Below are positions 880 to 19,646 of a stretch of 36,431 bases of DNA, in pieces. Position 1 is the first letter of the stretch. Every line of letters starts with the position of its first letter. Position numbers and translations under genes: made by a program. The stretch is from Dehalococcoidales bacterium (GTDB taxonomy: Bacteria; Chloroflexota; Dehalococcoidia; Dehalococcoidales; RBG-16-60-22), in contig DAOVRI010000001.1 in the NCBI GenBank assembly GCA_030628245.1, positions 1 through 36,431 of the forward strand, in the 5' to 3' direction. The notes beneath the pieces were generated by a model. That model was not told the origin of the DNA and made no database searches. It worked only from the letters and a program-made list of their open reading frames with translations.

Positions 880-948
880 GGCAAAATCGTGCGTGTTAAA
901 ATCAACAAATATTAACTGAAGCTGTGAACCAGTAAAGGGGGAGAGAAC

Positions 949-2136: not shown

Positions 2137-2141
2137 AAACC

Positions 2142-2174
2142 CCGGGTCTGCTACGGCAGGCCCGGTTTTTATTT
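2142..2174 (+). terminator. Rho-independent terminator after the thiolase gene
   Basis: 10-bp GC-rich stem CCGGGTCTGC / GCAGGCCCGG (one G-U pair), loop TACG, followed by TTTTTATTT. An A-tract lies upstream. Confidence 0.7.
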
Positions 2175-2287
2175 GGAAACAACGGAGACTGCAGGCTTTT
2201 TCTTGCTGGACTTGCCGGCAGTCCGACCTGATAAAGGGTAGACGAAATACCGCACGCAACATGCTTATGGCCTTAGGAGGATGAAGA

Positions 2288-3445: not shown

Positions 3446-3466
3446 TACGCGGAAAGGAGTCTTACA

Positions 3467-4609: not shown

Positions 4610-4632
4610 ACACTTCAGGAAATGTGTCTAAC

Positions 4633-4661
4633 TTGATTTTTAACCAGATGGGTATTAAAAT
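4633..4661 (+). promoter_or_regulatory. sigma70-like promoter candidate (TTGATT-17-TAAAAT)
   Basis: TTGATT at 4633-4638, a 17-nt spacer, and TAAAAT at 4656-4661, in the 98-nt gap before the M24 gene. Motif match only. Confidence 0.35.
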
Positions 4662-4707
4662 CACGTTGCCGTAAAGATATCATTATTATCGGCGAAGGAG
4701 GAGGCTA

Positions 4708-5928
4708 ATGACGAAATTTGCGGTAAGACCGTTCGGCGGACCGGAGGCAGTGGACTGGTCTGAGAGGATAAACACCGCTCGCATGAGAGAGGAAAGGCTG
4801 GCCAAAGCCCAGGCTTCCCTGAAGAAAAATGGTATCGCCGCCTGCCTGCTAATGCGACCCGAGAACATGCGTTATGTGACCAGCACCAAGGCGGTGAACT
4901 TTATTGACCAGCTCAGATACTCCGTAGCCTTTGCGGAACACGACCCCATAGTTTATGAGTTACCGCCCGGCAACCTCTTCGGGGTGTGCCCCTGGATTAA
5001 GCCGGAGAACCTCAAACTCGCCATACTCTGGGCGGACGAAGCCTGCGGGCCGGCCGCCACCTGGGAAAGGGCCCAGAAATTCGCCCGGTCCATCAAGCAG
5101 GACTTGAAAGAAAAGGGACTGGAAAAGGAAAAGCTAGGCATTGATAAGCTTGACGAACCCGCCCAGCAGGCGCTGAGGGAGGCGGGGATAGAGACCGTTG
5201 ACGTTATGCCGGCAATGCTGGAAGCGCGGGCGGTAAAGACGGAAGACGAGATTAACTGCCTGATGATGGCGGTAGCCATATCCGAGGTAGGCTGGTATGC
5301 CCTGTATGAAGCCCTCAAGCCGGGCGTGCTGGGTCGAGACCTTATCGCCGCCGCCAATAAAGCCATGTACAGCGCCGGGGCTGAAGACGTCTGGGGAGTC
5401 CTGGGAGGCGCACGTAACACCGGTATTGTACAGGTGGGCGACGTCATCACCGTTGACTTCTGCCGCATTACCTACCTGGGATACAATACCTGCTACTATC
5501 GCAACATCATCGTCGGCCGGAAGCCCAACCAGAAAGAGATGGATATGCATAAGAGGATCTACGAGCGGGTGTACAATGTTATCGATGCCATCAAGCCCGG
5601 GGCCACCACCGCCGATGCCGCCAAACACTGGCTGCCCGCCAAGGAAAGGGGCTACCCCACCGAGGAGTATACCTGGTGCGAGGATTTAGCCCACGGCCTG
5701 GGCCTGTGGCTCTACGAATACCCGCTCATCAACCGGCTCTGGTCGTTCGATCACCCCATGACCCTGGAAAAGGGAATGACCATGGCCGTGGAGGCTATGG
5801 AGTTCGACCCGGCGGTCGGCAGGACCAAACTGGAGGAGATGATAGTGGTCGGCGATAAAGGCGCCGAGGTTATGACCAAGATGCCGGCTAAGGACATGAT
5901 GATAGCCAGCCCCATAATTACAGCCTGA
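4708..5928 (+). CDS. M24 (creatinase/prolidase, pita-bread fold) family hydrolase
   Basis: 406 aa. Creatinase_N-like N-terminal half, then GDVITVDF...GYNTCYYRN, AHGLGL, MAVEAME and KLEEMIVV blocks matching the M24 catalytic-domain layout. SD AAGGAGGAGG upstream. Confidence 0.7.
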   Translation: MTKFAVRPFGGPEAVDWSERINTARMREERLAKAQASLKKNGIAACLLMRPENMRYVTSTKAVNFIDQLRYSVAFAEHDPIVYELPPGNLFGVCPWIKPENLKLAILWADEACGPAATWERAQKFARSIKQDLKEKGLEKEKLGIDKLDEPAQQALREAGIETVDVMPAMLEARAVKTEDEINCLMMAVAISEVGWYALYEALKPGVLGRDLIAAANKAMYSAGAEDVWGVLGGARNTGIVQVGDVITVDFCRITYLGYNTCYYRNIIVGRKPNQKEMDMHKRIYERVYNVIDAIKPGATTADAAKHWLPAKERGYPTEEYTWCEDLAHGLGLWLYEYPLINRLWSFDHPMTLEKGMTMAVEAMEFDPAVGRTKLEEMIVVGDKGAEVMTKMPAKDMMIASPIITA

Positions 5929-5978
5929 CAAGCCCGATAGAGGCTCTTAAGATTGGTATTTAGAAAGGAGGTAATCTC

Positions 5979-7376
5979 GTGACTTACTCGCAAGTTCCCA
6001 AAAAGTGGGATGGTGAAGCTGATGTCATTGTAGTTGGTGGTGGCAATACCGGTATACCGGCCGCCATTACCGCACATGATAAGGGGACCAAGGTTATCGT
6101 ACTGGAGGCTTCAAATGGAATGGCCAGCAGTCTGGCCATGATTGCCGGGGGAACGCCGTTTACCGGTACCGACCTGCAGAAAGCCGAGGGTATTGAGGAT
6201 TCCCCTGACAAACTGTATGAGGAAGCCGTCAAGGTTAGCGGTGGTGACCCGGAGCTCTGGAGAGCACTGGCAGACCGTCAGGAGGAAGTCTACGAATGGC
6301 TTAAATCCCTGGGTGCCAAACCAGAAAAAGTACTTCTGGCGCCGGGACACAAGGTAAGACGCTCTATTAAATTTGAAGGCCATGGCCCCGCTCTCTGCAA
6401 CATTCTCCGGAACGCCCTGAAAAAGTCGGGGATTGATGTCCGGTACAAGCATCGCGCCAGAAAACTGATCGTCGATAACGGCCGGGTCATCGGCATCACT
6501 GCCGAGTCTGGTGACAAAACTAATAGCTTCAAGGCCAGGAAAGCGGTTATTCTCGCCACCGGTGGCTTTTGTCAAAACTTGGACATCGTGAAGGAGTTTG
6601 GGCCGCAGTATGCTGATTTAGTTCCCACAGCGCCTAAAACCCATCAGGGTGACGGCCTGAAAATGGCTATGGCCATCGGCGCAGGGACGGATGGTCTGGG
6701 CTTGGCAGTATGTCCGTCCATGCCCGTAGGCGCCGAGACTCTTCAATTCGTAAATGCGGGCATACAGGGCGGCATTACCGTGGACAGGTACGGGAAGAGA
6801 TTCGGTAATGAGGCGACAGAAGAACTAGGCACCTACACTGAAAAGCATAAGATATGTCTGGATCATGACCCAACCGGTCTGCACATTACTGTTTCCGACC
6901 AGGCGATAAAGGACCTCAATGAGCCGCCATCAACCACTACTCGCGAACCGATTTACAGGGTAGACACTATTGAGGAACTGGAGAAACAGCTCGGCATTCC
7001 CGCCGGAAACCTGAAGGCGACCGTTGACGAGTATAACTCGGATATCAAGAAGTACGGTTATGACAGGAAGTTCGGCCGGCGCCTGCAAGGAATGTACTGG
7101 CCGGATTTGCCGGTGATGAAACTGGATCACCCTCCGTTCTATGCTGTTAAAAACAAGATTTGCCTGACTTCGATGAAGGGCGGCTTGAAAATCAACGCGA
7201 AGTGCCAGATAATCGACCAGTTCGGCGATGTTATTCCAGGACTCTACGCAGCCGGGGAGATAGCCGGAGGCTTGGAGCGCATACCCCACCATTACTACAC
7301 CGGAAGAATGACGATGCAAGCCTTCACCCAGGGAAGAATCGCCGGAGATGTCGCCGCCGACGAACCCGGCAGTTAA
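5979..7376 (+). CDS. soluble FAD-dependent oxidoreductase, fumarate-reductase/3-ketosteroid-dehydrogenase-like flavoprotein (FAD_binding_2 type)
   Basis: 465 aa with a GTG start after AAAGGAGG. Dinucleotide fold DVIVVGGGNTGIPAAITA...VIVLE, and a C-terminal GLYAAGEIAGG motif. Confidence 0.75.
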   Translation: MTYSQVPKKWDGEADVIVVGGGNTGIPAAITAHDKGTKVIVLEASNGMASSLAMIAGGTPFTGTDLQKAEGIEDSPDKLYEEAVKVSGGDPELWRALADRQEEVYEWLKSLGAKPEKVLLAPGHKVRRSIKFEGHGPALCNILRNALKKSGIDVRYKHRARKLIVDNGRVIGITAESGDKTNSFKARKAVILATGGFCQNLDIVKEFGPQYADLVPTAPKTHQGDGLKMAMAIGAGTDGLGLAVCPSMPVGAETLQFVNAGIQGGITVDRYGKRFGNEATEELGTYTEKHKICLDHDPTGLHITVSDQAIKDLNEPPSTTTREPIYRVDTIEELEKQLGIPAGNLKATVDEYNSDIKKYGYDRKFGRRLQGMYWPDLPVMKLDHPPFYAVKNKICLTSMKGGLKINAKCQIIDQFGDVIPGLYAAGEIAGGLERIPHHYYTGRMTMQAFTQGRIAGDVAADEPGS

Positions 7377-7437
7377 GCATCCGTATGAAACACAGCATCG
7401 CCGGGTGTTTAAGGCGAGATAAAGAAATAAGATAATA

Positions 7438-8799
7438 ATGAAGTGGCAGGATAAGTACCGCGATAAGTTAATAACGGCCAAAGAAGCGGCTGAACTGATA
7501 ACCTCCGGCTCTGATGTCATCTTTGCTATGATGGACCAGCCCAAGGATATCATGGTAGAAACCGCCAGGCGATGCGGGGAGCTGGAGAATGTAACCCTGA
7601 CCTCTCACTGGGTCGAGGACTTCCCCTTCCTTCACCCCAGCCAGTATCCCGAAATGGAAAAAGCGTTCCGTATCGTAGACCCCATGACCCTGAGGACCAC
7701 CCGGGAAGAGGTACGTAATAAGAAAATCGACTGGCAACCGACCGTCTTCGGGCTGAGCAACGGCGAGAGGCAGGAGTGCGCCGACCGGGGGCGGCTGTAC
7801 CACTATAAAGATTTCTTTTTCTTCAAGCTGACCCCACCCGACGAAAACGGCCGCTGCAGCTTCGGGCCGCATCCCTGGTACACGCCGACTACCTGCAGGA
7901 CCGCCAAAGTCAAGATTGCCGAAATCGACCCCCGCCTGACGTGGGTGCACGGTGAATACGTCAACATCGATGACATAGACTACCTTGTCGAAGCACCCGA
8001 AGAGAAAGAACTAAGAGGCAAGGAAATCCTGGGGATGACGCCGTCCCCCGAAGAGTGGGAGCTATCCCAAGTCATCGGTGCCAATGCCGCCTCCCTGATT
8101 AACGATGGCGATACCATACAGATCGGGGTGGGGACTGCCGCCGAGGCGATTATGGGCTTCATGGCTGAGAAAAACGACCTCGGCATCGATAGCGAGGTAA
8201 TCTATTCCCAGACGATAGACCTGGTCAAGCGCGGCGTTATCACCGGCAAAAGGAAAACTCACGATACCGGGAAGGTAACCGCCGCCAACCTTCAGCTCTA
8301 CGGCTACGATGAGCCTGTCAGTATCGAGTCCCGGGAGTATGTCAGGGAAAACCCGGCATTTTTATTCCGGGATATCTCCACCCAGTGTCACGTCCCCAGA
8401 ATCGCCGCACAGGACAACATGGTAGCCATCAACAATATCCTGTCGGTAGACCTTCTGGGGCAGGTTGTCATCACTCACCTCGGTTCAACGCCAATCACCG
8501 GTCCCGGGGGACAGGTGGACTTTTGCATCGGCGCGCACTATTCTAAAGGGGGGCGCTCCATATCCATGTTGAAGTCTACCGCCCTTGACGGTAAGGTATC
8601 CCGGATAGTGCCCAAGTTCGATGCAGGCACGGTGATAATGATTCCCATGGTTTACCTCGACTACCTGGTGACCGAGTATGGAATCGCCAACCTCGATTGC
8701 AAGAGCCGGCGGGAGAGGGCGGAGGCTGTTATCTCGGTAGCCCACCCCGGTTTTCGGGATGAGTTGAGGCAAGCCGCCAGGGAAATGTTCTACCCGTAG
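7438..8799 (+). CDS. acetyl-CoA hydrolase/transferase family protein, 4-hydroxybutyrate CoA-transferase (AbfT/Cat2)-like
   Basis: 453 aa. N-terminus MKWQDKYRDKLITAKEAAELITSG, with GVGTAAEAI...GIDSEV, GGQVDF and YLVTEYGIANL blocks. These are collinear with my recollection of Clostridium aminobutyricum AbfT. Confidence 0.8.
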   Translation: MKWQDKYRDKLITAKEAAELITSGSDVIFAMMDQPKDIMVETARRCGELENVTLTSHWVEDFPFLHPSQYPEMEKAFRIVDPMTLRTTREEVRNKKIDWQPTVFGLSNGERQECADRGRLYHYKDFFFFKLTPPDENGRCSFGPHPWYTPTTCRTAKVKIAEIDPRLTWVHGEYVNIDDIDYLVEAPEEKELRGKEILGMTPSPEEWELSQVIGANAASLINDGDTIQIGVGTAAEAIMGFMAEKNDLGIDSEVIYSQTIDLVKRGVITGKRKTHDTGKVTAANLQLYGYDEPVSIESREYVRENPAFLFRDISTQCHVPRIAAQDNMVAINNILSVDLLGQVVITHLGSTPITGPGGQVDFCIGAHYSKGGRSISMLKSTALDGKVSRIVPKFDAGTVIMIPMVYLDYLVTEYGIANLDCKSRRERAEAVISVAHPGFRDELRQAAREMFYP

Positions 8800-8860
8800 T
8801 ATTATGACGTGAGGCGTCATAGTGCTAATATATGAAGGGTTAGATATGTAAATATACTGT

Positions 8861-8935: not shown

Positions 8936-10396
8936 GTGCAGATAAAACAAGCTTTAACCAAGATAGTCGGCGCGGAAAATGTCTCCGATGACCCCGAAGC
9001 GCTTCTATCTTATTCCAAGGACTGTAGTCTCAGTACTCCTCGCGCCCCCAATTATGTAGCCAGGCCGAAGAATACAGATGAGGTACAGAAGGTCGTCAAG
9101 CTGGCCAACGAAAGCAGGATACCCGTTGTGCCCTGCAGCTCCGGCATCCACTTTTACGGAAACACGATTCCGAATCTGGGCGGGATAATGCTGGATTTAG
9201 GGCGGATGAACAGGATTCTGGAGTTTGACCTGTACAACAAAATGGTAAGAGTGGAGCCCGGTGTCACCTGGGGGCAACTGCAATCTGAAGCACCCAAGCA
9301 CAAGATGATGGGACTCGGCCCGCTACTGCCCCATCCATTGAAGTCGGTACTGACCAGCCACCTGGAGAGAGAGCCCATGTTGATACCGAAATTCGAGTAT
9401 GCCGGCAGTATGGTAACCATAGAAGCGGTTCTGCCCGACGGTGAGGTGTTCCGAACCGGCTCCGCCTGTGTGCCCGGTTTTCCTGATAAGAGCCTGGCCG
9501 AAGGCGTTAATCCCGGAGGCCCGGGGTACTTATCCTATAACTGGCTTCTGCAGGGCGCCCAGGGCACCATGGGGGTGGTAACCTGGGCCAAGGTCAAGCT
9601 GGCACCCAGGCCTAAAATAGACAAGACTTTTTTTATTCCCTTTGAACAGCTCGAGGATGCTGCCCAGCTGGTTTACAATGTGCAGCGGCGCATGATAGGT
9701 GAAGAGTGCCTCATATTAAACAGCGTAAACCTGGCAGCTATCCTGACCAAAAAATGGCCTCAGGATTATGATAATCTCAGGAGAATATTAGCACCCTGGA
9801 CCGTTATCCTGGTCTCCGGCGGAGGCTGGAGACGCCCCGAGGAGAGAATAGAATACGAGGAGGACGGGCTACGCGAGGCAGCCAACGAGCTACATATTCC
9901 GGAACTGCCGACGTCCCTGCCCAGCTTACCGGGCATCGAAAGAGACCTGCCGGGAATGCTTCGTAACGCCTGGCCCGAGAAGAAGACCTACTGGAAGTTC
10001 GCCAGCCAGGGTGCCTGCCAGGATGTTTTCTTCTACACCACGCTGAACAGGGCGTCCGAATTCGTCTCGGTTATGAGCCAGGTAGCCGCCGAGAATGGCT
10101 ACTGCATCGATGATATAGGCTTCTACGTACAACCCATGGAGTACGGACGTTCCTGTCATTTCGAATGCAACTTTCCCTACAACCCGGGTAATCCCGATGA
10201 CGTGGCGATGATTTACAACCTGCATGCTGAGGCTGCCGAGGCCGCGATAGATATGGGCGGCTACTTTTCCAGGCCGTACGGCGTGGTAGCGGATATGGTT
10301 TACGATAGAGCCGCAAGCTATACAACGGCCTTGAAAAAGGTCAAACAACTGTTCGACCCCAATAATATCATGTCGCCCGGCAGGCTATGCTTCTAG
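8936..10396 (+). CDS. FAD-linked oxidase (GlcD / D-lactate-dehydrogenase-like), subunit 1 of trio 1
   Basis: 486 aa with a GTG start after GAGGAGG. FAD_binding_4-type N-terminal half (IVGAENVSDDPE...) and a C-terminal FDPNNIMSPGRLCF tail typical of FAD-linked oxidases. Confidence 0.85.
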   Translation: MQIKQALTKIVGAENVSDDPEALLSYSKDCSLSTPRAPNYVARPKNTDEVQKVVKLANESRIPVVPCSSGIHFYGNTIPNLGGIMLDLGRMNRILEFDLYNKMVRVEPGVTWGQLQSEAPKHKMMGLGPLLPHPLKSVLTSHLEREPMLIPKFEYAGSMVTIEAVLPDGEVFRTGSACVPGFPDKSLAEGVNPGGPGYLSYNWLLQGAQGTMGVVTWAKVKLAPRPKIDKTFFIPFEQLEDAAQLVYNVQRRMIGEECLILNSVNLAAILTKKWPQDYDNLRRILAPWTVILVSGGGWRRPEERIEYEEDGLREAANELHIPELPTSLPSLPGIERDLPGMLRNAWPEKKTYWKFASQGACQDVFFYTTLNRASEFVSVMSQVAAENGYCIDDIGFYVQPMEYGRSCHFECNFPYNPGNPDDVAMIYNLHAEAAEAAIDMGGYFSRPYGVVADMVYDRAASYTTALKKVKQLFDPNNIMSPGRLCF

Positions 10397-10426
10397 TCCA
10401 AATTAGATAAGGTGAGTAGGTGAAAA

Positions 10427-11689
10427 ATGTTGAAAGTTGAAGAATATAAACATCAAGCCGAAACATGTGTGAGGTGCAGCTACTGCAAGTTTGTCGACCT
10501 CAACTGGGTTAAAAGCTCCCGGTTTTCCCGGCAGTGCCCGATAGACACGAGGTACCGATTCAATCTATATTCGGCGCATGGTTTACTGCACTCAGCCCTA
10601 GCTGAGCTGTCCGGCAAGCTGGAGTTCACCCCGAAACTCATGGATGCTTTGTGGCATTGCACCCTCTGCGGCGGTTGTGACACGAAGTGCAAACGAAACC
10701 TGGATGTCGAGGTGCTGCAGGTAATCGAGACGCTGAGATGCCGGTGCGTGGAACAGGGCAAGGGCCCCTTACCCGAGCATAAGATGCTGGCGGATAACGT
10801 TAAGTCCAGTCACAACATCTACGGCGCCGACCCCAAGGAGCGCCTGAACTGGCTGCCGCCGGACATCAAGCCGGCCAAGAAAGCTGACATCCTTTATTTC
10901 GTCGGTGACCCCATGTCTTACCGGTGGCCGGAACTTGCCCAAGCTACCGCTAAGATTTTGGGAAAAGCCGGAGCCAAATTCATGGTTCTGGAGGATGAAT
11001 GGAGCAGCGGCCATGAGCTGTTTGCCACCGGCCAGCTGGCACCGGCGAAGGAGATGGCCGACCACAACACAAAGGCTATCAAGGACTCAGGCGCCAAGAC
11101 GGTGATAACCAGTGACGCCGAATGCTACAAGACACTCAAGGTGGACTATCCCAAGATAATGGAAAAGTCCACCGAAGATATGCCTTATACCGTCCTGCAC
11201 ATAACGGAGTATATCGACCAGTTGATGCAGGACGGCAAATTCAAATTCAACCGGCGCGTTCCCATGAAGGTAACCTACCATGACCCGTGTAACCTGGGCA
11301 GGCTTGCCGAGCCGTGGTACCACTGGGAACCAAAATATGAGCCGCCCAACATTGCCGTGGGTAAGACATGGCGACGCGGGGAAAAAGGCGTTTATGAGCC
11401 GCCGAGGAATATCCTTAAAGGAATCCGGGGGCTGGAGCTTATCGAAATGGAAAGAATCTGGGATAATGCCTGGTGCTGCGGTTACGGCGGTGGCGTCGGG
11501 ACAGCCTTCCCGGACTTTGCCCTGTGGACAGCCGGCGAAAGAATCGAGGAGGCCATAACAACCGGCGCCGAGGCCATAGTAAGCAGCTGCCCCCACTGTA
11601 AAGACATCCTCGGCAGAGCCGCTGATGCTAATAACACCGGTATCAAGGTTTATGACATTACCGAAGTAATGCTTCGGGCAATCAGGTAG
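10427..11689 (+). CDS. (Fe-S)-binding protein, GlcF/HdrD-like, with two ferredoxin-type Cys motifs and two CCG domains (the first degenerate)
   Basis: 420 aa. CVRCSYC...CP and CTLCGGCDTKC motifs. The C-terminal CCG domain is intact (YHDPCNLGR, WCCGYGGG, SSCPHC). The N-terminal CCG domain reads GD / SSG / TSDAEC. Confidence 0.85.
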   Translation: MLKVEEYKHQAETCVRCSYCKFVDLNWVKSSRFSRQCPIDTRYRFNLYSAHGLLHSALAELSGKLEFTPKLMDALWHCTLCGGCDTKCKRNLDVEVLQVIETLRCRCVEQGKGPLPEHKMLADNVKSSHNIYGADPKERLNWLPPDIKPAKKADILYFVGDPMSYRWPELAQATAKILGKAGAKFMVLEDEWSSGHELFATGQLAPAKEMADHNTKAIKDSGAKTVITSDAECYKTLKVDYPKIMEKSTEDMPYTVLHITEYIDQLMQDGKFKFNRRVPMKVTYHDPCNLGRLAEPWYHWEPKYEPPNIAVGKTWRRGEKGVYEPPRNILKGIRGLELIEMERIWDNAWCCGYGGGVGTAFPDFALWTAGERIEEAITTGAEAIVSSCPHCKDILGRAADANNTGIKVYDITEVMLRAIR

Positions 11690-11710
11690 AAAAAGTTAAA
11701 GGAGATAGCG

Positions 11711-13189
11711 ATGAGCATACCTAGAGAAGCTTATCAGACACTGCAATCTATTGTCGGACCCGAATGGGTTAGCGACGACCCGGCAATCTGTGAGGCCGAC
11801 CGCTATTGCAGTCTGTCCAGTCCTTCTGATGAACAACGCAGACCCGGGTGCAGCATCGAACCGGCCAGCACCGAGGAGGTGCAGGCAATCGTCAAGGTAG
11901 CCAACAGGTACAAGATACCCTACGTCTGCACCAGCACTTTCTACAGCGCCGGTACTTATGCCAGAAAGGACGACTCCATCCTCATCGACCTGAAGAGGAT
12001 GAACGAGATTGAGATAGATGAGAAGAACCTGTACGCTATCGTCGGGCCGGGGGTAGCCTTCTCGGCACTTCAGGCCGACCTGCTCAAGAGGGGTCTCATC
12101 ACCTTTGTCCCGGGGTGCGGCGGCAACTCTTCGGTGCTAGCCAATACCGTTAATATGGGTGATGCCCCTATCGGGTGGAGATACGGCCTTGGTTACCAGC
12201 GGTTATTGGGCGTCGAGTGGGTGCTCCCCGATGGTGAGATGCTGAAGATGGGTTCTCTATCGATGTCAGATGATTACTTCTGGGGCGAAGGACCCGGCCC
12301 CGACCTTCGCGGTCTTTTGAGGGGATGCGCCGGGCATCAGTCGAGACTCGGGATTGTCACCAAGATAGGGGTAAAGATATTCCCCTTCGTCTCCGAGGAG
12401 CTTGAGCCGATGGGCTGGGCATTCCATTCGTTCATGAAGCTACCGCCGAACAGGTTTAAGTGGTATAATATCAGGTTCTATTCCCGGGAAGATGCCATCA
12501 ATGCCATGTTTGAAATCGGCAGGTCTGAGATAGGTCTGGTGGTGATGACGGTGCCACCGATATTCCGGAGTGTTGCCAGGACCAGGGGAGTTGGCTGCGG
12601 CGGCTTCTGGGAAGCCTGGAAAGAAAACGGCCCTAAAATTAAGCCGAACCAGGAAGACCTCCGCGTACTGCTGTACGGTATCGGCTCCGACAAGCGCCTG
12701 GAATACGAGGAGAAGGTTTTACTGGACATAGTCAAGGATTTCGGCGGTTCCCCACGTGAAGCTCCCTGTCGCGATGAAACGAATTTCATGGCTGCCGATG
12801 CCATCTGCGCCAACGTTGTCGGGGGCAGGTTCTCTTCCGAGGTATCCTACGAATCCATCAACCAGGCCGTCAGGTACAGCCGGGTTGTTAATGAGATAAC
12901 GGAAAAGTACAAACCTCGGATACTGGAGGACTACGGCACCACGAACTGGGTCTGCCCCTACGAACTGGGCTACATCGCCAAGATGGAATGCCTCCGCATG
13001 TCTTCTGTGGAAAACAGGGATGCACTGGACAAGTGGCACGACGACGTCCACAAGTTTTGTGCTACGGGAGGTGGTTCTACTATATTCCCCGAAGATGAAA
13101 TATTCGGGCCCGTCTGGGGTAACTACCCTGAAAAGGAAGCTAAAATCAGGGCACTCTTCGACCCGAACCATGTTTCCGCCCCTCAATAG
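11711..13189 (+). CDS. FAD-linked oxidase family protein (GlcE-like position, long form), subunit 3 of trio 1
   Basis: 492 aa. N-terminus YQTLQSIVGPEWVSDDP, LLGVEWVLPDGEMLKMGS, and C-terminus IRALFDPNHVS. SD AAAGGAG upstream. Confidence 0.8.
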   Translation: MSIPREAYQTLQSIVGPEWVSDDPAICEADRYCSLSSPSDEQRRPGCSIEPASTEEVQAIVKVANRYKIPYVCTSTFYSAGTYARKDDSILIDLKRMNEIEIDEKNLYAIVGPGVAFSALQADLLKRGLITFVPGCGGNSSVLANTVNMGDAPIGWRYGLGYQRLLGVEWVLPDGEMLKMGSLSMSDDYFWGEGPGPDLRGLLRGCAGHQSRLGIVTKIGVKIFPFVSEELEPMGWAFHSFMKLPPNRFKWYNIRFYSREDAINAMFEIGRSEIGLVVMTVPPIFRSVARTRGVGCGGFWEAWKENGPKIKPNQEDLRVLLYGIGSDKRLEYEEKVLLDIVKDFGGSPREAPCRDETNFMAADAICANVVGGRFSSEVSYESINQAVRYSRVVNEITEKYKPRILEDYGTTNWVCPYELGYIAKMECLRMSSVENRDALDKWHDDVHKFCATGGGSTIFPEDEIFGPVWGNYPEKEAKIRALFDPNHVSAPQ

Positions 13190-13217: not shown

Positions 13218-14684
13218 ATGTTAAAGACAGCACGCGAGTATACCGAAAGCCTGCGCCATCTGAAACTGAATCTTTACCTGCTTGGCGAAAAGGTCGAGGA
13301 CTGGGTTGATAACCCCATCATCAAGCCGTCAACCAATGCGGTGGCCATGACCTATAAGCTCGCCCACGAACCCGAAATCGAATCCCTGGCCGTCACGGAG
13401 TCCATGCTCACGGGGAAGAAGGTCAACAGGTTCATCTCCCTCTTCAAGAGCCCCGATGATATGGTCAGAAAAATTAAACTGCAGAGAGAGCTGGGACAGA
13501 GAACAGCCTGCTGCTTCCAGAGGTGTGTCGGCATGGACGGCATCAATGCCACCTTCAGTACCACTTATGAAATTGACGAAAAGCACGGCACCGATTACCA
13601 TCAGAAGTTCCGGAAATGGCTGGAATATATCCAGGAGAATGACCTGACTGTCGCCGGGGCCATGACCGATGTCAAGGGACACCGCGGCGTGGCGCCGAGC
13701 CAGCAGAAAGACCCGGATATGTTCGTCCATATCTCCGAACGCCGGGATGACGGTATAATCATAAGGGGGGCCAAGGCCAACATCACCGGAACGGTGAACT
13801 CCCACGAAATGCTGCTCATGCCCACCCTCAGGATGCGCGAGGATGACAAAGACTACGCCGTCTGCTGCGCCGTACCCACCGATGCTCAAGGAATAACCCA
13901 TATCTACGGCAGACAGTCCTGCGATACACGCAAGTTCGAGGAGGGGGACATCGATGTCGGCAACTACGGCTTCGGCGGCCAAGAGACCCTGAGTATCTTT
14001 GATGACGTATTCGTCCCCTGGGACCGTGTCTTCATGAGCGGGGAATATGATTTCGCCATCATGCTGGTAGAGCGGTTCGCCGCTTATCACCGGCAGAGCT
14101 ACGGCGGCTGTAAACCCGGCATTGCTGACGTCCTCATCGGCGCCGCCGCCGCCATGGCCGATTACAACGGCGTACGCCGGGCCGCCCATATCAGGGAGAA
14201 AATCGGGGAGATGATTCACCTTTCCGAGACAATACACGCCTGCGGCCTGGCCAGCGCCTACCAGGGCTGGAAAACCAGGGCGGGCAACTACCAGGCTCAT
14301 ATACTTCTGGCTAACGTCTGCAAGCACAACACGACCAGATTTCCCTACGAAATTACCCGACTGGCTGAGGATATAGCCGGCGGTATCCTGGTCACCACCC
14401 CCTCCGAGAAAGACTTCAGACACCCGGTAATAGGTAAAATCATTGATAAATACCTGAAAGGCGACCCCGCCTATTCCACCGAGGAACGCTACCGCATGCT
14501 ATCGCTCATCCATGCCATGTGCTTCGGCGTGGTTGCCCCCAGCTATCACACCGAGTCCATGCACGGCGCCGGTTCACCGCAGGCGCAGAAGATAATGATT
14601 GAGCGCGAGACCGACATGGATGCCAAGCAACGCTTTGCCCGCAGTATCGCGGGCATTGATAAACGAGAAAACCCACTGGATTAA
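13218..14684 (+). CDS. abfD: 4-hydroxybutyryl-CoA dehydratase / vinylacetyl-CoA isomerase
   Basis: 488 aa. By my recollection it is collinear with C. aminobutyricum AbfD along the whole length (QRCVGMD, FGGQE, YHRQSYGGCK, ESMHGAGSPQAQ). Cys99, Cys103, His291 and Cys298 sit at the [4Fe-4S] ligand positions. Confidence 0.85.
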   Translation: MLKTAREYTESLRHLKLNLYLLGEKVEDWVDNPIIKPSTNAVAMTYKLAHEPEIESLAVTESMLTGKKVNRFISLFKSPDDMVRKIKLQRELGQRTACCFQRCVGMDGINATFSTTYEIDEKHGTDYHQKFRKWLEYIQENDLTVAGAMTDVKGHRGVAPSQQKDPDMFVHISERRDDGIIIRGAKANITGTVNSHEMLLMPTLRMREDDKDYAVCCAVPTDAQGITHIYGRQSCDTRKFEEGDIDVGNYGFGGQETLSIFDDVFVPWDRVFMSGEYDFAIMLVERFAAYHRQSYGGCKPGIADVLIGAAAAMADYNGVRRAAHIREKIGEMIHLSETIHACGLASAYQGWKTRAGNYQAHILLANVCKHNTTRFPYEITRLAEDIAGGILVTTPSEKDFRHPVIGKIIDKYLKGDPAYSTEERYRMLSLIHAMCFGVVAPSYHTESMHGAGSPQAQKIMIERETDMDAKQRFARSIAGIDKRENPLD

Positions 14685-14706
14685 ACCCGGGAAAAGAGGC
14701 GACAAT

Positions 14707-15897
14707 ATGTCTTACTTTCTGAGTCCGAAAAAAATCCTGTTCGGTAAAAATATGCTGAGGAGGTTGGGAGCCGAGCTTGAAGGCCGCGGCAATAAAGCCG
14801 CACTGATTACCGATAAAAACATGGTTAAGCTCAGCGGAGAACTTGTTGAAACGGTTAAGGGCGCCGGGTACGAAGTTAAAATCTGGGACGGAGCGGAGCC
14901 GGAGCCTTCGACGGCAGGTGCTATCGAGGCCAGCAAAATGCTTAAAGAGTTCCAACCCCAGCTGGTCATCGGCTTCGGCGGAGGCTCGGTCCTGGACACG
15001 GCCAAGGCAGCCTGGGTGCTCTATGAGAACCAGGAAATCGCTCCCGACGAGATTACCTCCGTTAACGTAAAGACCAAGCTGAATCCGCAGAAGAAAGCCA
15101 GGTTCATGACTGTCCCTACCACCAGCGGCACCGGCTCGGATGTCACCTGGGCCATCGTGCTCGCGGAGGCCGCCGAACACCGCAAGGTTGGCTTCGCCAA
15201 CACGGAAATAGTGCCCGATATTACGCTGCTGGTTCCCGAGTTTACGTCCGGCATGCCCAGGGCATTGACGGCCAGCACCGGCCTTGACGTTCTGGGCCAC
15301 GCCCTCGACGGGTATACCGCCCGGCAGCAGACAGATTTCAGTGACGGACTCTGCCTGCAGGCCATGAAGCTGGCCTTTGAGTGGCTTCCCAGGGCATGCG
15401 CCGATGGAGCCGACCTCGTGGCCAGGGAGAAAATGCAGAATGCCGCCACCATCGCCGGACTGGGATTCGGCAACAGCAATACGTCACTCTGTCACGCCCT
15501 GGCGCATACCCTCGGGGCTACCTTCAGCATACCTCACGGGCGCTCCGTAGGCATAACATTACCTTATTCGCTGGAATATATCGCCTCGAATCCTGCCATT
15601 GAAGGCGCCCCCGACCCCGTGGAGAGGCTCAGCACCGCCGCCAGGTTTGTCGGGATTAAAGCTGAGTCGGACCAGGAAGCCATCAAAAAGCTGATTCAGA
15701 AGCTAAGAGACCTGGCGAAGGAAACGGGTGAGCCTCTGAGCCTGAAGGAAGCCGGCATCACGGAGCAGCAGATGAACGATAAGCTGGATACCCTGATGGC
15801 TCTCGTCAGCAAGGATGTCAACATGTTCTCCAGTCCCTGCGAATGCAAGGACGAAAAGCTCCGCCAGCTTTTCCAGGACATCTGGGCCGGCAGGTAA
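14707..15897 (+). CDS. iron-containing (group III) alcohol dehydrogenase, possibly 4-hydroxybutyrate dehydrogenase-like
   Basis: I moved the start to the ATG at 14707 (MSYFLSPKKILFG), which has an AAGAGG SD. The longer ORF from 14599 would overlap abfD. Motifs GFGGGSVLDTAKA and CHALAHTLG support the family call. Confidence 0.85.
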   Translation: MSYFLSPKKILFGKNMLRRLGAELEGRGNKAALITDKNMVKLSGELVETVKGAGYEVKIWDGAEPEPSTAGAIEASKMLKEFQPQLVIGFGGGSVLDTAKAAWVLYENQEIAPDEITSVNVKTKLNPQKKARFMTVPTTSGTGSDVTWAIVLAEAAEHRKVGFANTEIVPDITLLVPEFTSGMPRALTASTGLDVLGHALDGYTARQQTDFSDGLCLQAMKLAFEWLPRACADGADLVAREKMQNAATIAGLGFGNSNTSLCHALAHTLGATFSIPHGRSVGITLPYSLEYIASNPAIEGAPDPVERLSTAARFVGIKAESDQEAIKKLIQKLRDLAKETGEPLSLKEAGITEQQMNDKLDTLMALVSKDVNMFSSPCECKDEKLRQLFQDIWAGR

Positions 15898-15936
15898 CAG
15901 CCTGCACACGGAAAATTGAACAAACGAGGTACTGAT

Positions 15937-16797
15937 ATGCCGGTTTGCCAGTTTGGTGGCATCAACATAAATTATAAAGTATTTGGAGAGGGGTTCCCCC
16001 TGGTCTTAATCCATCCGTTCTCAGCCAGCCTGGAGTTTTGGGCACCGCAAATTGAAAAACTGTCACCCAAATACCAGATTATCGCCTATGACGTCCGCGG
16101 CCACGGCTTGTCCTCGGCGCCGGCCGGTGAGGAGAACTACACCCTGGATATCCTCGTGGAAGACCTGCATCACCTGCTCGAACACCTGGGGGTGGCCAAA
16201 GCCTATATCGGCGGCCTTTCTCTCGGCGGCGCCATATCGCTGGGTTACGCCGGCCGCCACCCCGATACGGTAAAAGCCCTGCTTATCTGCGATATTCACG
16301 GCGGCTTCCAGCCGCCTTCCGACCCCGCTATACAGGCCGCCATGGACGAGGGGCGGGAAAAGGGTGAAAGGTATGCCCGGGAGAGAGGCATGGCCGATTT
16401 CGCCCGGCGCCAGATTGCCACCGGAACCGCTTTCCCTCCCGTCCCGAAGGACGAAGCCCTTCAGGAGCAGCATGTCGAGAGAATGGCCAGATTCCCGGTT
16501 AATGGATATATCGGCGTAGGCCGGGCCAGGCCCTGGGAGGCTGAATGGCAGCGCCAGGCTGCCGATAATATTAATGTGCCCACCCTGATAACCGTCGGCA
16601 GTGACGACCTGCCCATGGTAGTATCGGGTACGAGAATATTGCACGAGCATATCAAGGGCTCACGCTACGTGGTAATAAAAGGCTCAGTTCATGAAACAGC
16701 GCGGTGGCGCCCCGATTTGTTTACCCAGGCTGTTATTGAGTTTCTCGAGGCGGTAGAGGCGGGCAAACCGGTAGCGGGAGAAATAACCGTAGGCTAA
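15937..16797 (+). CDS. alpha/beta-fold hydrolase (enol-lactonase / C-C hydrolase-like)
   Basis: Nucleophile elbow GGLSLGG, a PLVLIHPF oxyanion region, and a C-terminal GSVHE His motif. The ATG at 15937 has a GAGG 7 nt upstream. An alternative TTG at 15916 lacks an SD. Confidence 0.75.
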   Translation: MPVCQFGGININYKVFGEGFPLVLIHPFSASLEFWAPQIEKLSPKYQIIAYDVRGHGLSSAPAGEENYTLDILVEDLHHLLEHLGVAKAYIGGLSLGGAISLGYAGRHPDTVKALLICDIHGGFQPPSDPAIQAAMDEGREKGERYARERGMADFARRQIATGTAFPPVPKDEALQEQHVERMARFPVNGYIGVGRARPWEAEWQRQAADNINVPTLITVGSDDLPMVVSGTRILHEHIKGSRYVVIKGSVHETARWRPDLFTQAVIEFLEAVEAGKPVAGEITVG

Positions 16798-16906
16798 GGG
16801 GCTGGCAGTCGTCAGCTTAAGAGTTTGGACTTACCGATTAGATATCGGTGCAAACAGGCGCCCGGTTATGATAATATAAAGCAAATTTGAAACCTGTGGA
16901 GGCAAA

Positions 16907-19549: not shown

Positions 19550-19646
19550 TAGTCCCACCCATTGCCCCGAGTAAATCCGGACGATGCTTAACGAGAACGG
19601 GCAACGCCGGGCTTACTATGTCTTTTATTTACGGGGAGGATGTAGA

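Follow-up and report, generated by a model that had tools for sequence, protein, structure and literature searches.

Described relatives of the triplet

Neither GlcDEF nor GlpABC possesses an anchor subunit, yet both feed quinone at the membrane. In 2026, the same three-protein architecture that is analyzed here was reported for the proteins that bacteria degrading benzene anaerobically make in the largest amounts, and that flavoprotein was proposed to start anaerobic benzene breakdown, on the basis of proteomics, labelling, and modelling only (PMC13416013, PMC13101534). The proteins in question, BzS1_12970/80/90 and the ORM2a proteins #24 to #26, have the domain architectures, gene order, and sizes of the triplet described below (PMC13416013 section 3.5; PMC13101534). 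By AF3, GlcDEF is the closest characterized complex to the ORM2a proteins, according to Toth et al. (PMC13101534). Homologues in NaphS2 and Desulfosarcina variabilis confer no benzene use (PMC13416013).

The window, that is, the complete 36,431-nucleotide stretch of Dehalococcoidales DNA that was analyzed, encodes such a triplet (Table 1). SPD72886.1, which matches BzS1_12980 with 40% identity (E = 8e-118; Table S4, PMC13416013), proved to be subunit 2 of the triplet in locus L034 and is 44% identical to subunit 2 of the window. The Table S4 match thus places the benzene-degrader flavoprotein and the triplet in one family, to which, judged by sequence comparison, both belong. Because a similar enzyme was described in benzene degraders in 2026 (PMC13416013, PMC13101534), the triplet is less unprecedented than the preliminary description presumed.

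Table 1. Features of the window that are discussed in the text
Feature	Position	Strand	Description
Conserved upstream genes, part 1	442..8799	+	DUF35/ChsH2-OB, SCP2-type thiolase, two acyl-CoA dehydrogenases (Pfam)
Conserved upstream genes, part 2	442..8799	+	M24/creatinase-like hydrolase, FAD_binding_2 flavoprotein, 4-hydroxybutyrate-type CoA-transferase (Pfam)
Imperfect palindrome	8804..8820	+	ATGACG-tgagg-CGTCAT, directly 3' of the CoA-transferase stop codon
Sigma-70-like promoter match	8861-8889	+	TTAACA-17-TATAAT, 11/12 positions
Subunit 1 gene	8936-10396	+	GTG start, 486 aa; VAO/PCMH-fold flavoprotein, likely catalytic
Subunit 2 gene	10427-11689	+	420 aa; HdrD/GlcF-like Fe-S protein
Subunit 3 gene	11711-13189	+	492 aa; divergent full-length paralogue of subunit 1
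Conserved downstream genes	13218..20222	+	AbfD, Fe-ADH (probable start, 14707), alpha/beta hydrolase, AthL-like Mo subunit, UbiX
Aldehyde dehydrogenase	20691..22184	-	Pfam Aldedh, E = 5e-135; directly downstream of module B
Module B	22328-26789	-	Second, paralogous triplet; 33-38% identity to the first
Module B subunit 3	22328..24001	-	557 aa; 33% identity over N-terminal 364 residues; FAD_binding_4 only
Module B subunit 2	24020..25291	-	423 aa; 38% identity; both CCG motifs intact
Module B subunit 1	25326..26789	-	487 aa; 38% identity, full length; Pfam domains
TRAP system DctP/Q/M	30898-34408		Only transporter genes in the window

The three co-directional genes, their close spacing, and the upstream promoter match were all confirmed: the gaps are 30 nt between subunits 1 and 2, 21 nt between subunits 2 and 3, and 28 nt to the next gene, and the promoter match is the top plus-strand one within positions 1 to 20000, with promoter-like sites overall about twice as numerous as in shuffled sequence (28 versus 13.8 ± 3.8). 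A GAGGAGG ribosome-binding site lies just upstream of the GTG of subunit 1. The palindrome, which may be an operator or a hairpin, is semiconserved together with the surrounding 136-nt spacer in four closely related loci of Dehalococcoidales (L006, L007, L014, and L017), and the -10-like box and the "acctgagaat" after it recur among close relatives. This promoter-bearing gap is restricted to the closest Dehalococcoidales (L001, L003, and L016 lack the spacer, their gap measuring 13 to 24 nt); the triplet can be said to head the operon there, but in other relatives it occupies the middle of a ~15-gene cluster.

The absence of an adjacent membrane anchor, cytochrome, or permease was borne out as well: no protein of the triplet contains a hydrophobic segment, the CxxCH motif is absent from all proteins of the window, and the TRAP genes are 18 kb away. 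That the complex is soluble, as had been suggested, does not follow, given the anchorless GlcDEF and GlpABC.

The subunits and their distinction from GlcDEF

Subunit 1 (Pfam FAD_binding_4 and FAD-oxidase_C) is nearest to the p-cresol methylhydroxylase/vanillyl-alcohol oxidase (PCMH/VAO) group by profile and by predicted fold. The best PDB match of its family profile is PchF, over the full length (E = 2e-34), followed by VAO-type enzymes (1e-31), LctD (5e-28), and LDHD (6e-27), and the family HMM gives PchF 129.8 bits versus 70.9 for E. coli GlcD. In a Foldseek search with the AF2 model of subunit 1 (pLDDT 78.8; all AF2 models here are of single chains and moderately confident, with low-confidence loops near the presumed flavin site), the top 39 matches were all 4-phenol oxidoreductases (TMq 0.77 to 0.82), compared with 0.72 to 0.73 for LDHD. 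The identity of subunit 1 to any solved enzyme is only ~21%.

About 20 polar residues of the subunit 1 substrate domain are kept across subfamilies; the conserved polar residues of this protein include S68, S69, E144, R145, K221, E257, N262, Y352, W353, K354, Y397, Q399, H408, E410, R446, and C485. Arg474, His436, and Pro155 of PchF correspond to the near-invariant R446, H408, and P132. The PCMH/VAO triad that binds phenolate is incomplete: Ser or Thr takes the place of Tyr473, and the position of Tyr95 of PchF, which aligns with Y74, is variable in the family (Y, H, R, N, or Q). Neither covalent-FAD residue of the known enzymes is kept at its known position in subunit 1, and the FAD is probably not linked through tyrosine or histidine as it is there. 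Subunit 1 is likely the catalytic subunit.

Subunit 3 (Pfam FAD_binding_4 only) aligns with subunit 1 over 438 columns (hhalign, A3 versus A4; probability 100, E = 1e-45), and its AF2 model (pLDDT 83.3) has a two-domain VAO fold. To judge from this alignment, it is a paralogue of subunit 1 that has kept its full length but degenerated: three residues are missing from the FAD pyrophosphate loop, and loop and active-site mapping found none of the PCMH-type active-site residues. The C-S-S-G of subunit 1 (residues 67 to 70) and the T-S-T-F of subunit 3 (residues 73 to 76) are present as initially described, but the R-G-x-G-T-S loop to which they had been compared is the GlcD form, from which PCMH/VAO enzymes differ (S-T-G-R-N-F-G-Y-G); the pyrophosphate loop of subunit 1, S-S-G-I-H-F-Y-G, is of the PchF type.

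Subunit 2 (Pfam Fer4_8 and two CCG domains) resembles HdrD. Its two ferredoxin-type four-cysteine motifs retain all 8 cysteines, and its second CCG motif (CCG2) is intact; the first (CCG1) is without its cysteines, which are gone in every subunit 2 orthologue (alignment A1; cysteine table, 49 triplets). This loss had been overlooked in the preliminary description. Opposite CCG motifs are lost in different branches (same cysteine table; Fig. S13 legend, PMC13101534), which is hard to reconcile with a single fixed electron exit site.

The resemblance to GlcDEF raises the question of whether the triplet is a divergent 2-hydroxy-acid dehydrogenase of that type, acting on glycolate, D-lactate, or D-2-hydroxyglutarate and feeding quinone. 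The three-part cofactor architecture is alike, GlcF can be aligned over the whole length of subunit 2, some sources name the homologues "glycolate oxidase," and the AF3 comparison of the ORM2a proteins points in the same direction. However, scores against the NCBIfam equivalogs fall well under the cutoffs (bits/cutoff, 104/568 for GlcD, 24/284 for GlcE, and 77/278 for GlpC), BLASTP identity to the E. coli proteins is 23% for GlcD and 21% for GlcF, and E. coli GlcE is matched by neither flavoprotein, whether by BLASTP or by the family HMMs. The His/His/Glu metal triad of GlcD/LDHD is absent from the triplet, and in place of the H-x-G-D-G-N-x-H and G-E-H-G motifs of GlcD, subunit 1 has Q399...H408 and R446-P447-Y448-G449. 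PCMH/VAO enzymes rank first in both profile and fold searches, and no glycolate or lactate genes were found in the cluster, in line with the earlier reading of its context. By profile scores, none of the subunits falls within GlcDEF, which, like the synteny with AbfD and AthL-like genes described below, upholds the description of a distinct flavin/Fe-S enzyme, and a divergent GlcDEF-type enzyme appears very unlikely. "E-position subunit" is a misnomer for subunit 3, which is paralogous to subunit 1 and unrelated to GlcE. Identity with GlcDEF or D-lactate dehydrogenase was rejected on the grounds of the sub-cutoff NCBIfam scores, identities of ≤23%, and the missing metal triad.

The order 1-2-3 with short gaps is kept in 55 triplets from many phyla (the groups represented include Dehalococcoidia, Desulfobacterota, Actinomycetota, and Bathyarchaeia), and pairwise distances are correlated among the three subunits (r = 0.93 to 0.94). 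The three subunits coevolve as one unit, and the triplet is a real, widely conserved flavin/Fe-S enzyme of strict anaerobes.

The surrounding gene cluster

The triplet lies inside a conserved cluster for the breakdown of aromatic compounds. The upstream genes are ordered near-identically in L001, L003, L004, L006 to L008, L010, L014, and L017, and domain searches confirmed the downstream series. AbfD is bona fide: it matches 1U8V (E = 1e-200), and its cluster ligands are all in place. It is syntenic with the triplet in all 14 distinct orthologous loci whose contig reaches far enough. No gene of the cluster names the substrate of the triplet; the cluster would channel carbon, as CoA esters, toward 4-hydroxybutyryl-CoA and crotonyl-CoA.

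The AthL-like protein matches 4v4c_A (E = 7e-140), and its gene accompanies the triplet in 8 of the 9 far-reaching orthologous loci (L001, L003, L006, L007, L011, L013, L014, and L016). It had been suggested that the triplet is the redox partner of this beta-less Mo enzyme, and a dedicated electron-transfer partner that replaces the missing Fe-S subunit and itself acts on no organic substrate would fit this synteny, the lack of an AthS-like (beta) gene within the window, and the cytoplasmic location of the Mo subunit, which has no Tat signal. However, in the ninth locus, L010, the cluster is complete except for AthL; in L001, an AthS-like gene follows 3 kb downstream; AthL is missing from every other triplet subfamily (module B, BzS1/ORM2, L085, and L086 among them), and most triplet subfamilies lack any nearby Mo enzyme; and subunit 1, with its conserved polar residues, has a strongly conserved catalytic-type site of its own. 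The characterized transhydroxylase, moreover, catalyzes a net reaction without external electron transfer. The suggestion is weakened accordingly, and we regard it as unlikely.

The two acyl-CoA dehydrogenase (ACAD) genes, with no etfAB in the window, raise another option, namely, that the triplet serves as their electron sink in place of ETF and ETF:quinone oxidoreductase, neither of which the cluster encodes. HdrD-like CCG proteins act as ETF:menaquinone oxidoreductases in syntrophs, and ACAD genes recur next to distant triplets. Still, protein-to-protein electron carriers are not known among VAO-fold flavoproteins, ACAD genes are lacking around module B and many other triplets, and the conservation of cap-domain residues in subunit 1 favors a small-molecule site. 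This is the least probable of the readings considered.

Proposed function and a second triplet

The triplet is most likely a cytochrome-independent dehydrogenase for a phenolic or aromatic-derived intermediate, and we lean slightly toward one obligate heterotrimeric flavo-Fe-S dehydrogenase of the PCMH/VAO type that acts on such a substrate within a catabolic cluster. As to the direction of catalysis, substrate class, and electron acceptor, we infer that subunit 1 would move hydride from a substrate C-H bond onto FAD, the substrate most likely being a phenolic, benzylic, or other aromatic-derived intermediate of the surrounding pathway; that subunit 2 would pass single electrons via its two cubane [4Fe-4S] clusters to the one CCG-type cluster left; and that these would continue to a general acceptor for which no gene lies nearby, be it quinone, ferredoxin, or thiol/disulfide. 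Subunit 3 would form a pseudo-dimer with subunit 1, like GlcE with GlcD, and the shape of the substrate site may depend on its variable cap. The triplet would in effect be a PCMH counterpart that needs neither a cytochrome nor O2. Its role may instead be redox-neutral or reductive.

Homology to BzS1_12970-90 and ORM2a #24 to #26 brings in chemistry other than simple dehydrogenation, akin to that proposed for these relatives: an aromatic ring or unreactive carbon could be added to a C3-C5 cosubstrate, or flavin-based bifurcation could take place, with the product passing to the neighboring CoA-transferase, acyl-CoA dehydrogenases, and thiolase. In the benzene degraders, too, the triplet occurs with CoA-transferases and beta-oxidation-type enzymes (PMC13416013 section 3.5.2; PMC13101534 Table 2), and a plain dehydrogenase leaves two flavoprotein-like subunits and a noncanonical Fe-S subunit unexplained. 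Against this stand the identity of only ~40%, the unproven benzene chemistry itself, the homologues in NaphS2 and D. variabilis, and a window context of oxygenated aromatics (UbiD/UbiX, AthL, a uroporphyrinogen decarboxylase [URO-D]-like gene, and ALDH), for which ordinary dehydrogenation is enough. Such chemistry is thus the foremost of the alternatives, albeit still an unlikely one.

Under the preferred dehydrogenase reading, module B, a second triplet overlooked in the preliminary description, would probably, next to the ALDH, generate an aldehyde by oxidizing a compound of the benzyl-alcohol or alkylphenol type. ALDH adjoins B-type triplets in L011, L072, L080, and L082, and URO-D-like genes accompany them along with ALDH. 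Among the neighbors of 26 distant triplets, no acceptor gene recurs; ACAD, thiolase, AMP-ligase, FAD_binding_2, AFOR, and B12-binding genes are enriched. The L085 triplet neighbors BKACE, 3HCDH, and SDR genes, and that of L086 neighbors O-demethylase parts, ADH, ALDH, and two enzymes of the xanthine-dehydrogenase family.

A conserved three-gene unit

The three co-directional genes of module A, encoding in turn a FAD-linked flavoprotein, a CCG-domain Fe-S protein and a second flavoprotein-like subunit, were confirmed as open reading frames, together with the short gaps between them (30 and 21 nt) and the promoter-like match upstream. A further 28 nt separates subunit 3 from the next gene, and the GTG of subunit 1 is preceded by the ribosome-binding site GAGGAGG. 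Searches against Pfam and NCBIfam likewise confirmed the genes downstream, namely, an AbfD-type gene, an Fe-ADH, an alpha/beta hydrolase, an AthL-like Mo subunit and UbiX. No hydrophobic segment was found in any module A protein and no CxxCH haem motif in any protein of the window, consistent with the absence of a membrane anchor or cytochrome noted in the preliminary description; the label "soluble" given there to the enzyme was not borne out.

Features of the window and of comparison loci from other genomes and metagenomes
Feature	Sequence	Positions	Strand	Remarks
Terminator-like hairpin	window	2142-2165		strong; 10 pairs, 8 G-C, then T-run; just 3' of SCP2-type thiolase gene
4-Hydroxybutyrate-type CoA-transferase	window	7438-8799
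Spacer upstream of subunit 1	window	8800-8935		136 nt
Palindrome ATGACG-n5-CGTCAT	window	8804-8820		within the spacer
Promoter-like TTAACA-17-TATAAT	window	8861-8889	+	11/12 positions; top + strand match in first 20 kb
Module A subunit 1	window	8936-10396	+	GTG start, 486 aa; Pfam FAD_binding_4 + FAD-oxidase_C
Subunit 1 C-terminus	window	10390-10396		G-R-L-C-F
Module A subunit 2	window	10427-11689	+	420 aa; Pfam Fer4_8 + two CCG domains
Module A subunit 3	window	11711-13189	+	492 aa; Pfam FAD_binding_4 only
AbfD + Fe-ADH region	window	13218-15897
Probable Fe-ADH start	window	14707		ATG; listed ORF extends 86 nt into AbfD
UbiX	window	19584-20222
Aldehyde dehydrogenase	window	20691-22184	-	directly after module B; plus small ferritin-like ORF
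Module B subunit 3	window	22328-24001	-	557 aa; 33% identity to module A counterpart
Module B subunit 2	window	24020-25291	-	423 aa; 38% identity; both CCG motifs intact
Module B subunit 1	window	25326-26789	-	487 aa; 38% identity to module A subunit 1
Chagasin-family peptidase inhibitor (I42)	window	27114-27608	+	strongly hydrophobic N-terminus
UbiD-family decarboxylase, URO-D-like protein, TRAP transporter DctP/DctQ/DctM	window	27701-34408		-
Tungsten-type AFOR	window	34549-36384		AFOR_N + AFOR_C, 611 aa; end of contig
AthS-like Fe-S beta-subunit	L001	20378-21196		Fer4_11 + CarboxypepD_reg; 3 kb downstream of AthL-like gene
L085 triplet	ENA contig, 2.47 Mb	6325-20947 (triplet and neighbors)		with 3-hydroxyacyl-CoA dehydrogenase, BKACE, SDR, cupin and enoyl-CoA hydratase genes
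L086 triplet	JGI metagenome contig	348-20540 (triplet and neighbors)		with corrinoid O-demethylase-type parts (Pterin_bind, B12-binding, URO-D), Zn-ADH, ALDH; two sets of xanthine-dehydrogenase-family Mo enzymes (FAD_binding_5, Fer2, MoCoBD)

Module A had been described as heading an operon, a placement that does not hold in general. In relatives, the triplet lies in the middle of a cluster in which DUF35, an SCP2-type thiolase, two acyl-CoA dehydrogenases, an M24-type hydrolase, a FAD_binding_2 protein and a CoA-transferase precede it and AthL-like gene(s), AbfD, Fe-ADH, the hydrolase and UbiX follow, all co-directional; partial conservation of the spacer with the promoter-like site is confined to the nearest Dehalococcoidales loci. 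The semi-conserved block of this spacer ("gctaatat," a -10-like box and "acctgagaat") is missing from more distant orthologous clusters, and the gap before the triplet is 13 to 24 nt in the loci L001, L003 and L016. The spacer, which includes a palindrome, may be a regulator-binding region, and the promoter-like site may be a lineage-specific internal promoter; matches of this kind are about twice as frequent in the region as in shuffled sequence (28 versus 13.8 ± 3.8). Given the terminator-like hairpin that follows the thiolase gene, the first two genes of the window may form a separate transcript.

The window spans an entire NCBI contig of 36,431 bp. In the genome collection, the Dehalococcoidales MAG L006 comes nearest to it, with 91 to 98% protein identity across the cluster. 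Homologs of subunit 1 number more than 3,000 at an E value of ≤1e-10; more than 120 of the subunit 1 clusters are at least 60% identical, nearly all at 486 aa, and those that are named belong to Dehalococcoidia/Chloroflexota. For subunit 3, a scan of one genome per species yielded 428 relatives, the best 80 of which come from Dehalococcoidia, Desulfobacteraceae, Desulfarculus, Actinomycetota, Bathyarchaeia/Hecatellales, Spirochaetota and others, and 152 matches at an E value of ≤1e-30 were obtained among 1.84 billion 50%-identity representatives. The gene order 1-2-3 with short gaps is kept in all 55 triplets recovered from relative loci, and the pairwise distances of the three subunits are correlated (r = 0.93 to 0.94 over 49 nonredundant triplets). 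This constant order and covariation demonstrate a family in which the three genes are passed on together, the pattern that an obligate complex should show. Genes resembling subunit 3 also occur, in tandem or singly, without subunits 1 and 2 (L066 and L073 in Actinomycetota; L087), and relatives of subunit 3 may therefore work outside the triplet as well.

Affinities of the subunits and the predicted enzyme

By both profile and fold, subunit 1 is closest to the 4-phenol group (PchCF, VAO, eugenol oxidase and vanillyl-alcohol dehydrogenase). Its family profile matched PchF (1dii/1wve) best among PDB entries, over the full length (E = 2e-34), followed by VAO-type proteins (1e-31), LctD (5e-28), LDHD (6e-27) and a "glycolate oxidase" entry (1e-20). 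When the AF2 model (pLDDT 78.8, pTM 0.81) was searched with Foldseek, the best 39 matches were all 4-phenol oxidases/dehydrogenases (TMq 0.77 to 0.82), with LDHD ranking after them (0.72 to 0.73), and the family HMM scored PchF at 129.8 bits versus 70.9 for Escherichia coli GlcD. The pyrophosphate loop of subunit 1, S-S-G-I-H-F-Y-G, compares with S-T-G-R-N-F-G-Y-G in PchF and R-G-A-G-T-G-L-S-G in GlcD; the sequence of this loop had been read correctly beforehand, but what had seemed odd in it is the PCMH form.

Residues of PchF were mapped onto subunit 1 with two alignment methods, which agree, and conservation was assessed over 49 triplets. The counterparts of Arg474 (R446, 48/49), His436 (H408, 47/49) and Pro155 (P132, 47/49) are kept. 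That of Tyr95 is Y74, at a position that varies in the family (Y16/H12/R8/N5/Q3), and that of Tyr473 is S445, Ser or Thr in the family. Tyr384, which binds FAD covalently in PchF, corresponds in both alignments to F355, a variable position three residues after the conserved Y352-W353-K354. Identity to the 4-phenol group is ∼21%, and neither the covalent Tyr of the PCMH type nor the covalent His of the VAO type (His422) appears to be conserved. Thus, with the Arg, His and Pro retained, the Tyr473 counterpart replaced by Ser/Thr and the Tyr95 position variable, the scaffold is PCMH-like and the triad that binds the substrate phenolate (Tyr95, Tyr473 and Arg474 in PchF) appears incomplete. About 20 polar residues of subunit 1 are kept across all subfamilies, so that subunit 1 is likely the catalytic subunit and subunit 3 its variable partner. 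One of these residues, C485 near the C-terminus, is kept in 47/49 triplets and in all subfamilies; it has no equivalent in PchF or GlcD and might either lie at an interface or serve as a cluster ligand.

Subunit 3 is a full-length paralog of subunit 1 (hhalign probability 100, E = 1e-45, 438 columns), modeled by AF2 as a two-domain VAO fold (pLDDT 83.3), and its family HMM also scores PchF above GlcD (102.7 versus 73.4 bits). In all 49 sequences, the pyrophosphate-loop residues G-R-N are deleted; the PchF active-site residues have all been lost, and the cap domain conserves structural residues only.

Subunit 2 matches HdrB and HdrC structures and, like TfrB, GlpC, HdrD and HdrB, combines an N-terminal two-cluster ferredoxin domain with two CCG domains. 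Unlike them, it scores below the family cut-offs (TfrB, the best NCBIfam match, 160 versus 385; GlpC, 77 versus 278) and has one full CCG motif. All eight ferredoxin-type cysteines are kept, and CCG2 is complete (C288, C350-C351, C388-x-x-C391), whereas CCG1 reads "FVGDP," "EWSSGHE" and "SDAEC" in place of the "AGC," "ESCCGG" and "PCADC" of the paralog; in all module A orthologs examined, this motif consists of D161, S193, S194, D230 and C/V/A/T233. Because only one motif keeps five cysteines, the paired noncubane HdrB site cannot form in subunit 2. Both five-cysteine motifs are intact in most triplets, and in a sister group (L021, L022, L027 and L085) CCG1 has two or three cysteines and CCG2 one or two; in L085, both motifs are degenerate. 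The loss of opposite motifs in different branches argues against a two-cluster HdrB-type reaction site as a shared essential feature and would fit an electron transfer role better.

A GlcDEF-type 2-hydroxy-acid dehydrogenase would have a broadly similar composition, with two VAO-superfamily proteins, a Fer4/CCG Fe-S protein and no membrane-spanning subunit. Nevertheless, the order in module A is D-F-E as opposed to D-E-F in E. coli GlcDEF, the CCG1 cysteines are lost, and identity does not exceed 23% (subunit 1 versus E. coli GlcD, 23% over 237 residues; subunit 2 versus GlcF, 21%, E = 9e-6). In NCBIfam, the GlcD model scores subunit 1 at 104 bits (cut-off 568) and subunit 3 at 65 bits, the GlcE model reaches 24 bits (cut-off 284), and no GlcF model is among the matches of subunit 2. 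Neither flavoprotein matches GlcE by BLASTP (E = 0.014 and 3.2) or through its family HMM. Subunit 3, full length where GlcE has 350 aa, shows no detectable relation to it (E = 3.2; missed by the HMM) and was rejected as its ortholog. The GlcD metal-binding motifs H-x-G-D-G-N-x-H and G-E-H-G are replaced in subunit 1 by Q399...H408 and R446-P447-Y448-G449, conserved in 47 to 48 of the 49 family members. Distinctness from GlcDEF is thereby demonstrated, and a GlcDEF-type activity for module A is very unlikely.

The two-subunit GlcD-like/HdrD-like D-lactate dehydrogenases of sulfate reducers and the fused D-2-hydroxyglutarate dehydrogenase YdiJ likewise couple a VAO-superfamily flavoprotein to a CCG Fe-S module, and a weak NCBIfam match to YdiJ was obtained. 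These enzymes, however, lack a third, paralogous flavoprotein-like subunit, and they belong to the 2-hydroxy-acid group, the motifs of which are absent from module A. The LUD/DUF162 domains of LutB/LutC were found in none of the window proteins scanned against Pfam, which sets module A apart from LutABC. Hence, the distinctness from glycolate oxidase and D-lactate dehydrogenase proposed in the preliminary description was upheld by scores far below the cut-offs, the absent GlcE relation and the missing metal motifs.

Taken with the PCMH-like scaffold, these features lead us to favor, at slightly better than even confidence, a predicted heterotrimeric flavo-Fe-S dehydrogenase acting on a phenolic, benzylic or aromatic-derived substrate, for which we infer the direction of catalysis, the substrate class and the acceptor. 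Subunit 1 would transfer a hydride from such an intermediate to FAD, with subunit 3 as its pseudo-dimer partner, and subunit 2 would relay the flavin electrons to a general acceptor by way of two cubane clusters and one cluster of the CCG type. The whole enzyme would be an anaerobic equivalent of PCMH that works without a cytochrome. The acceptors listed for 4-phenol oxidases/dehydrogenases are only O2 or c-type cytochrome (PMC7617285); in module A, the partners are instead an HdrD-like Fe-S protein and a degenerate paralog. A literature search for a PCMH/VAO enzyme with an Hdr-like partner returned only two 2026 papers on benzene degradation as relevant.

Relation to the flavoproteins of benzene degraders

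Anaerobic benzene activation is a decades-old problem for which just one enzyme is currently a candidate, a heterotrimeric flavoprotein from a few Desulfobacterota/Pelotomaculum genomes. In the sulfate-reducing benzene degrader BzS1, the proteins BzS1_12970/80/90 (54.5, 46.5 and 65.8 kDa) account for roughly a fifth of the proteome that was detected; they are encoded in the order FAD-binding oxidase (PCMH-type and FAD-linked-oxidase domains), Hdr-like Fe-S protein and FAD protein with a PCMH-type domain only, and homologs with 23 to 42% identity in strain NaphS2 and Desulfosarcina variabilis "likely serve other metabolic functions" (Musat et al. 2026, PMC13416013). Their orthologs in ORM2a, the "Magic" proteins #24 to #26 (WAC08368-70), are the three most abundant ORM2a proteins and were modeled as a GlcDEF-like heterotrimer, with identity to GlcDEF no higher than 23%; the Fe-S subunit was noted to lack cysteines (Toth et al. 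2026, PMC13101534), and according to the legend of Fig. S13 that subunit (#25) has four to five cysteines in the first motif and only two in the second (PMC13101534). For both organisms, the role in benzene activation is a proposal based on proteomics, labeling and modeling (PMC13416013, PMC13101534).

Module A can be linked to these proteins transitively. SPD72886.1, which shares 40.2% identity with BzS1_12980 over 425 residues (E = 8e-118; PMC13416013, Table S4), was located by exact look-up in L034 (uncultured Desulfobacterium sp.), where two triplets lie in tandem and this protein is subunit 2 of the first; it is 44% identical to subunit 2 of module A (E = 4e-131). On the strength of these alignments, module A is assigned to the BzS1/ORM2 family as a distant member of a different subfamily. 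The gene order and domain architectures are the same, subunits 1 and 2 are of similar size (∼486 to 488 and ∼420 to 431 aa), cysteine motifs are incomplete in the Fe-S subunit, and genes for CoA-ester processing lie nearby. Conversely, subunit 3 has 492 aa compared with ∼577 aa, the degenerate motif is CCG1 rather than the CCG2 of ORM2a, the host is a member of the Dehalococcoidales rather than Desulfobacterota/Pelotomaculum, and the neighbors are AthL, AbfD and UbiX as opposed to type III CoA-transferases and MaoC dehydratases. Module A falls outside the benzene-linked "core" clade (63% identity or more, with the beta-oxidation genes of those clusters in synteny), as it stands at ∼40% via SPD72886.1 and has other neighbors. 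A non-dehydrogenase chemistry such as that proposed for benzene would agree with this shared architecture, but module A has no benzene link, and we consider such chemistry rather unlikely for it.

Thus, this kind of enzyme was recognized in 2026, and what is new here is the subfamily, its host group, its genomic context and the different degenerate CCG motif. The wide distribution of the triplet family is absent from both papers (PMC13416013, PMC13101534). Table S4 of PMC13416013 contains no Dehalococcoidia or Chloroflexota match, nor the subunit 1 accessions of the Desulfarculus and L034 triplets. The benzene activation candidate belongs to a large, modular and diversified family. Expression and assay should be less difficult for members acting on oxygenated aromatics than for the benzene enzyme, and the conserved residues and variable CCG motifs offer targets for mutagenesis and spectroscopy.

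Gene contexts and their functional implications

The A-cluster, the catabolic genes around module A, is a conserved cluster of 15 genes, and it points to a Dehalococcoidia catabolic pathway ending in 4-hydroxybutyryl-CoA dehydratase chemistry. With its match to 1U8V (E = 1e-200) and its retained cluster ligands, Cys-x3-Cys and His...Cys, the AbfD protein is a genuine enzyme of the 4-hydroxybutyryl-CoA dehydratase/vinylacetyl-CoA isomerase type. A 4-hydroxybutyrate-type CoA-transferase and the Fe-ADH flank it, and the three together make up the classic pathway that converts 4-hydroxybutyrate to crotonyl-CoA. The Mo subunit, which lacks a Tat signal, gives a full-length match to pyrogallol hydroxytransferase (E = 7e-140); genome surveys of the Dehalococcoidia cluster so far record only "pyrogallol transhydroxylase present." Several substrates were considered for the cluster. 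The routes from gallate via pyrogallol to phloroglucinol and those through hydroxyhydroquinone, resorcinol, gamma-butyrolactone/tetrahydrofuran and phloretin each fail to cover all genes, and no substrate is claimed. The M24/creatinase-like gene was rejected as a ring hydrolase of the phloroglucinol pathway, as dihydrophloroglucinol cyclohydrolase belongs to another family, the "cyclase" family (PMC10470551).

Synteny with AbfD and the Mo enzyme recurs elsewhere, in agreement with the core proposal of a distinct flavin/Fe-S enzyme in such a setting: the cluster is conserved in relatives, with AthL in 8/9 informative orthologous loci. Neither nesting among the GlcDEF or D-lactate dehydrogenase clades nor a lack of this synteny was found. 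The triplet had also been suggested as the redox partner of the Mo enzyme, which appeared to lack a beta subunit, and the frequent co-occurrence with AthL would suit a dedicated partner. However, in L010 the whole orthologous cluster is present without the AthL gene, other triplet subfamilies have no Mo enzymes beside them, and L001 encodes an AthS-like beta subunit of its own, although no AthS-like gene occurs in the window. These exceptions weaken the suggestion, and a dedicated partnership is judged unlikely.

The window carries a second, paralogous triplet, module B, that had been overlooked; its order and architecture are those of module A. The pairing of such a B-type triplet with aldehyde dehydrogenase and URO-D-like genes recurs in the Spirochaetota and Anaerolineae loci L072, L080 and L082. 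Farther along the contig, the URO-D-like protein is a possible O-demethylase-system methyltransferase, and the UbiD-family decarboxylase, URO-D-like protein and TRAP transporter, together with UbiX, suggest uptake and decarboxylation of an aromatic acid. The neighbors of the L086 triplet form a layout that resembles the p-cresol/4-hydroxybenzyl (4-hydroxybenzoate) route to benzoyl-CoA, with the triplet in place of PCMH. The neighbors of L085 recall, by analogy, the phloroglucinol pathway (PGR, TfD and TAL; PMC10470551).

Across 26 distant triplets, 125 neighbors were surveyed, among which FAD_binding_2 proteins, acyl-CoA dehydrogenases, thiolases, AMP-ligases, AFOR (beside 4 of the 26), B12-binding and TetR proteins were the commonest. 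A role as electron sink for the acyl-CoA dehydrogenases is regarded as the least plausible of those considered. As for an electron acceptor recurring beside the triplets, no ETF, ferredoxin or membrane-subunit gene appears among the 25 commonest neighbor families. The contexts of the family are readable (aldehyde dehydrogenase with O-demethylase genes, 4-hydroxybenzoyl-CoA-reductase-like enzymes, phloroglucinol-type genes), and their common theme is anaerobic aromatic/phenolic catabolism via aldehydes and CoA esters.

A broader and distinctly speculative proposal is that triplets constitute a general O2- and cytochrome-independent class attacking aromatic rings or benzylic carbons in anaerobes. 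The benzene enzyme would be one branch of this class, and the branch of module A in Dehalococcoidales would process polyhydroxybenzenes together with the AthL-like Mo enzyme, for instance, by oxidizing hydroxyhydroquinone or regenerating a tetrahydroxybenzene cosubstrate. If true, this would imply a new route from polyphenols to 4-hydroxybutyryl-CoA/crotonyl-CoA in one of the most abundant subsurface bacterial groups.

Finally, two further genes were observed beyond module B. A tungsten-type AFOR gene closes the contig, and a chagasin-family peptidase inhibitor gene stands alone between the catabolic genes, to which it seems unrelated.
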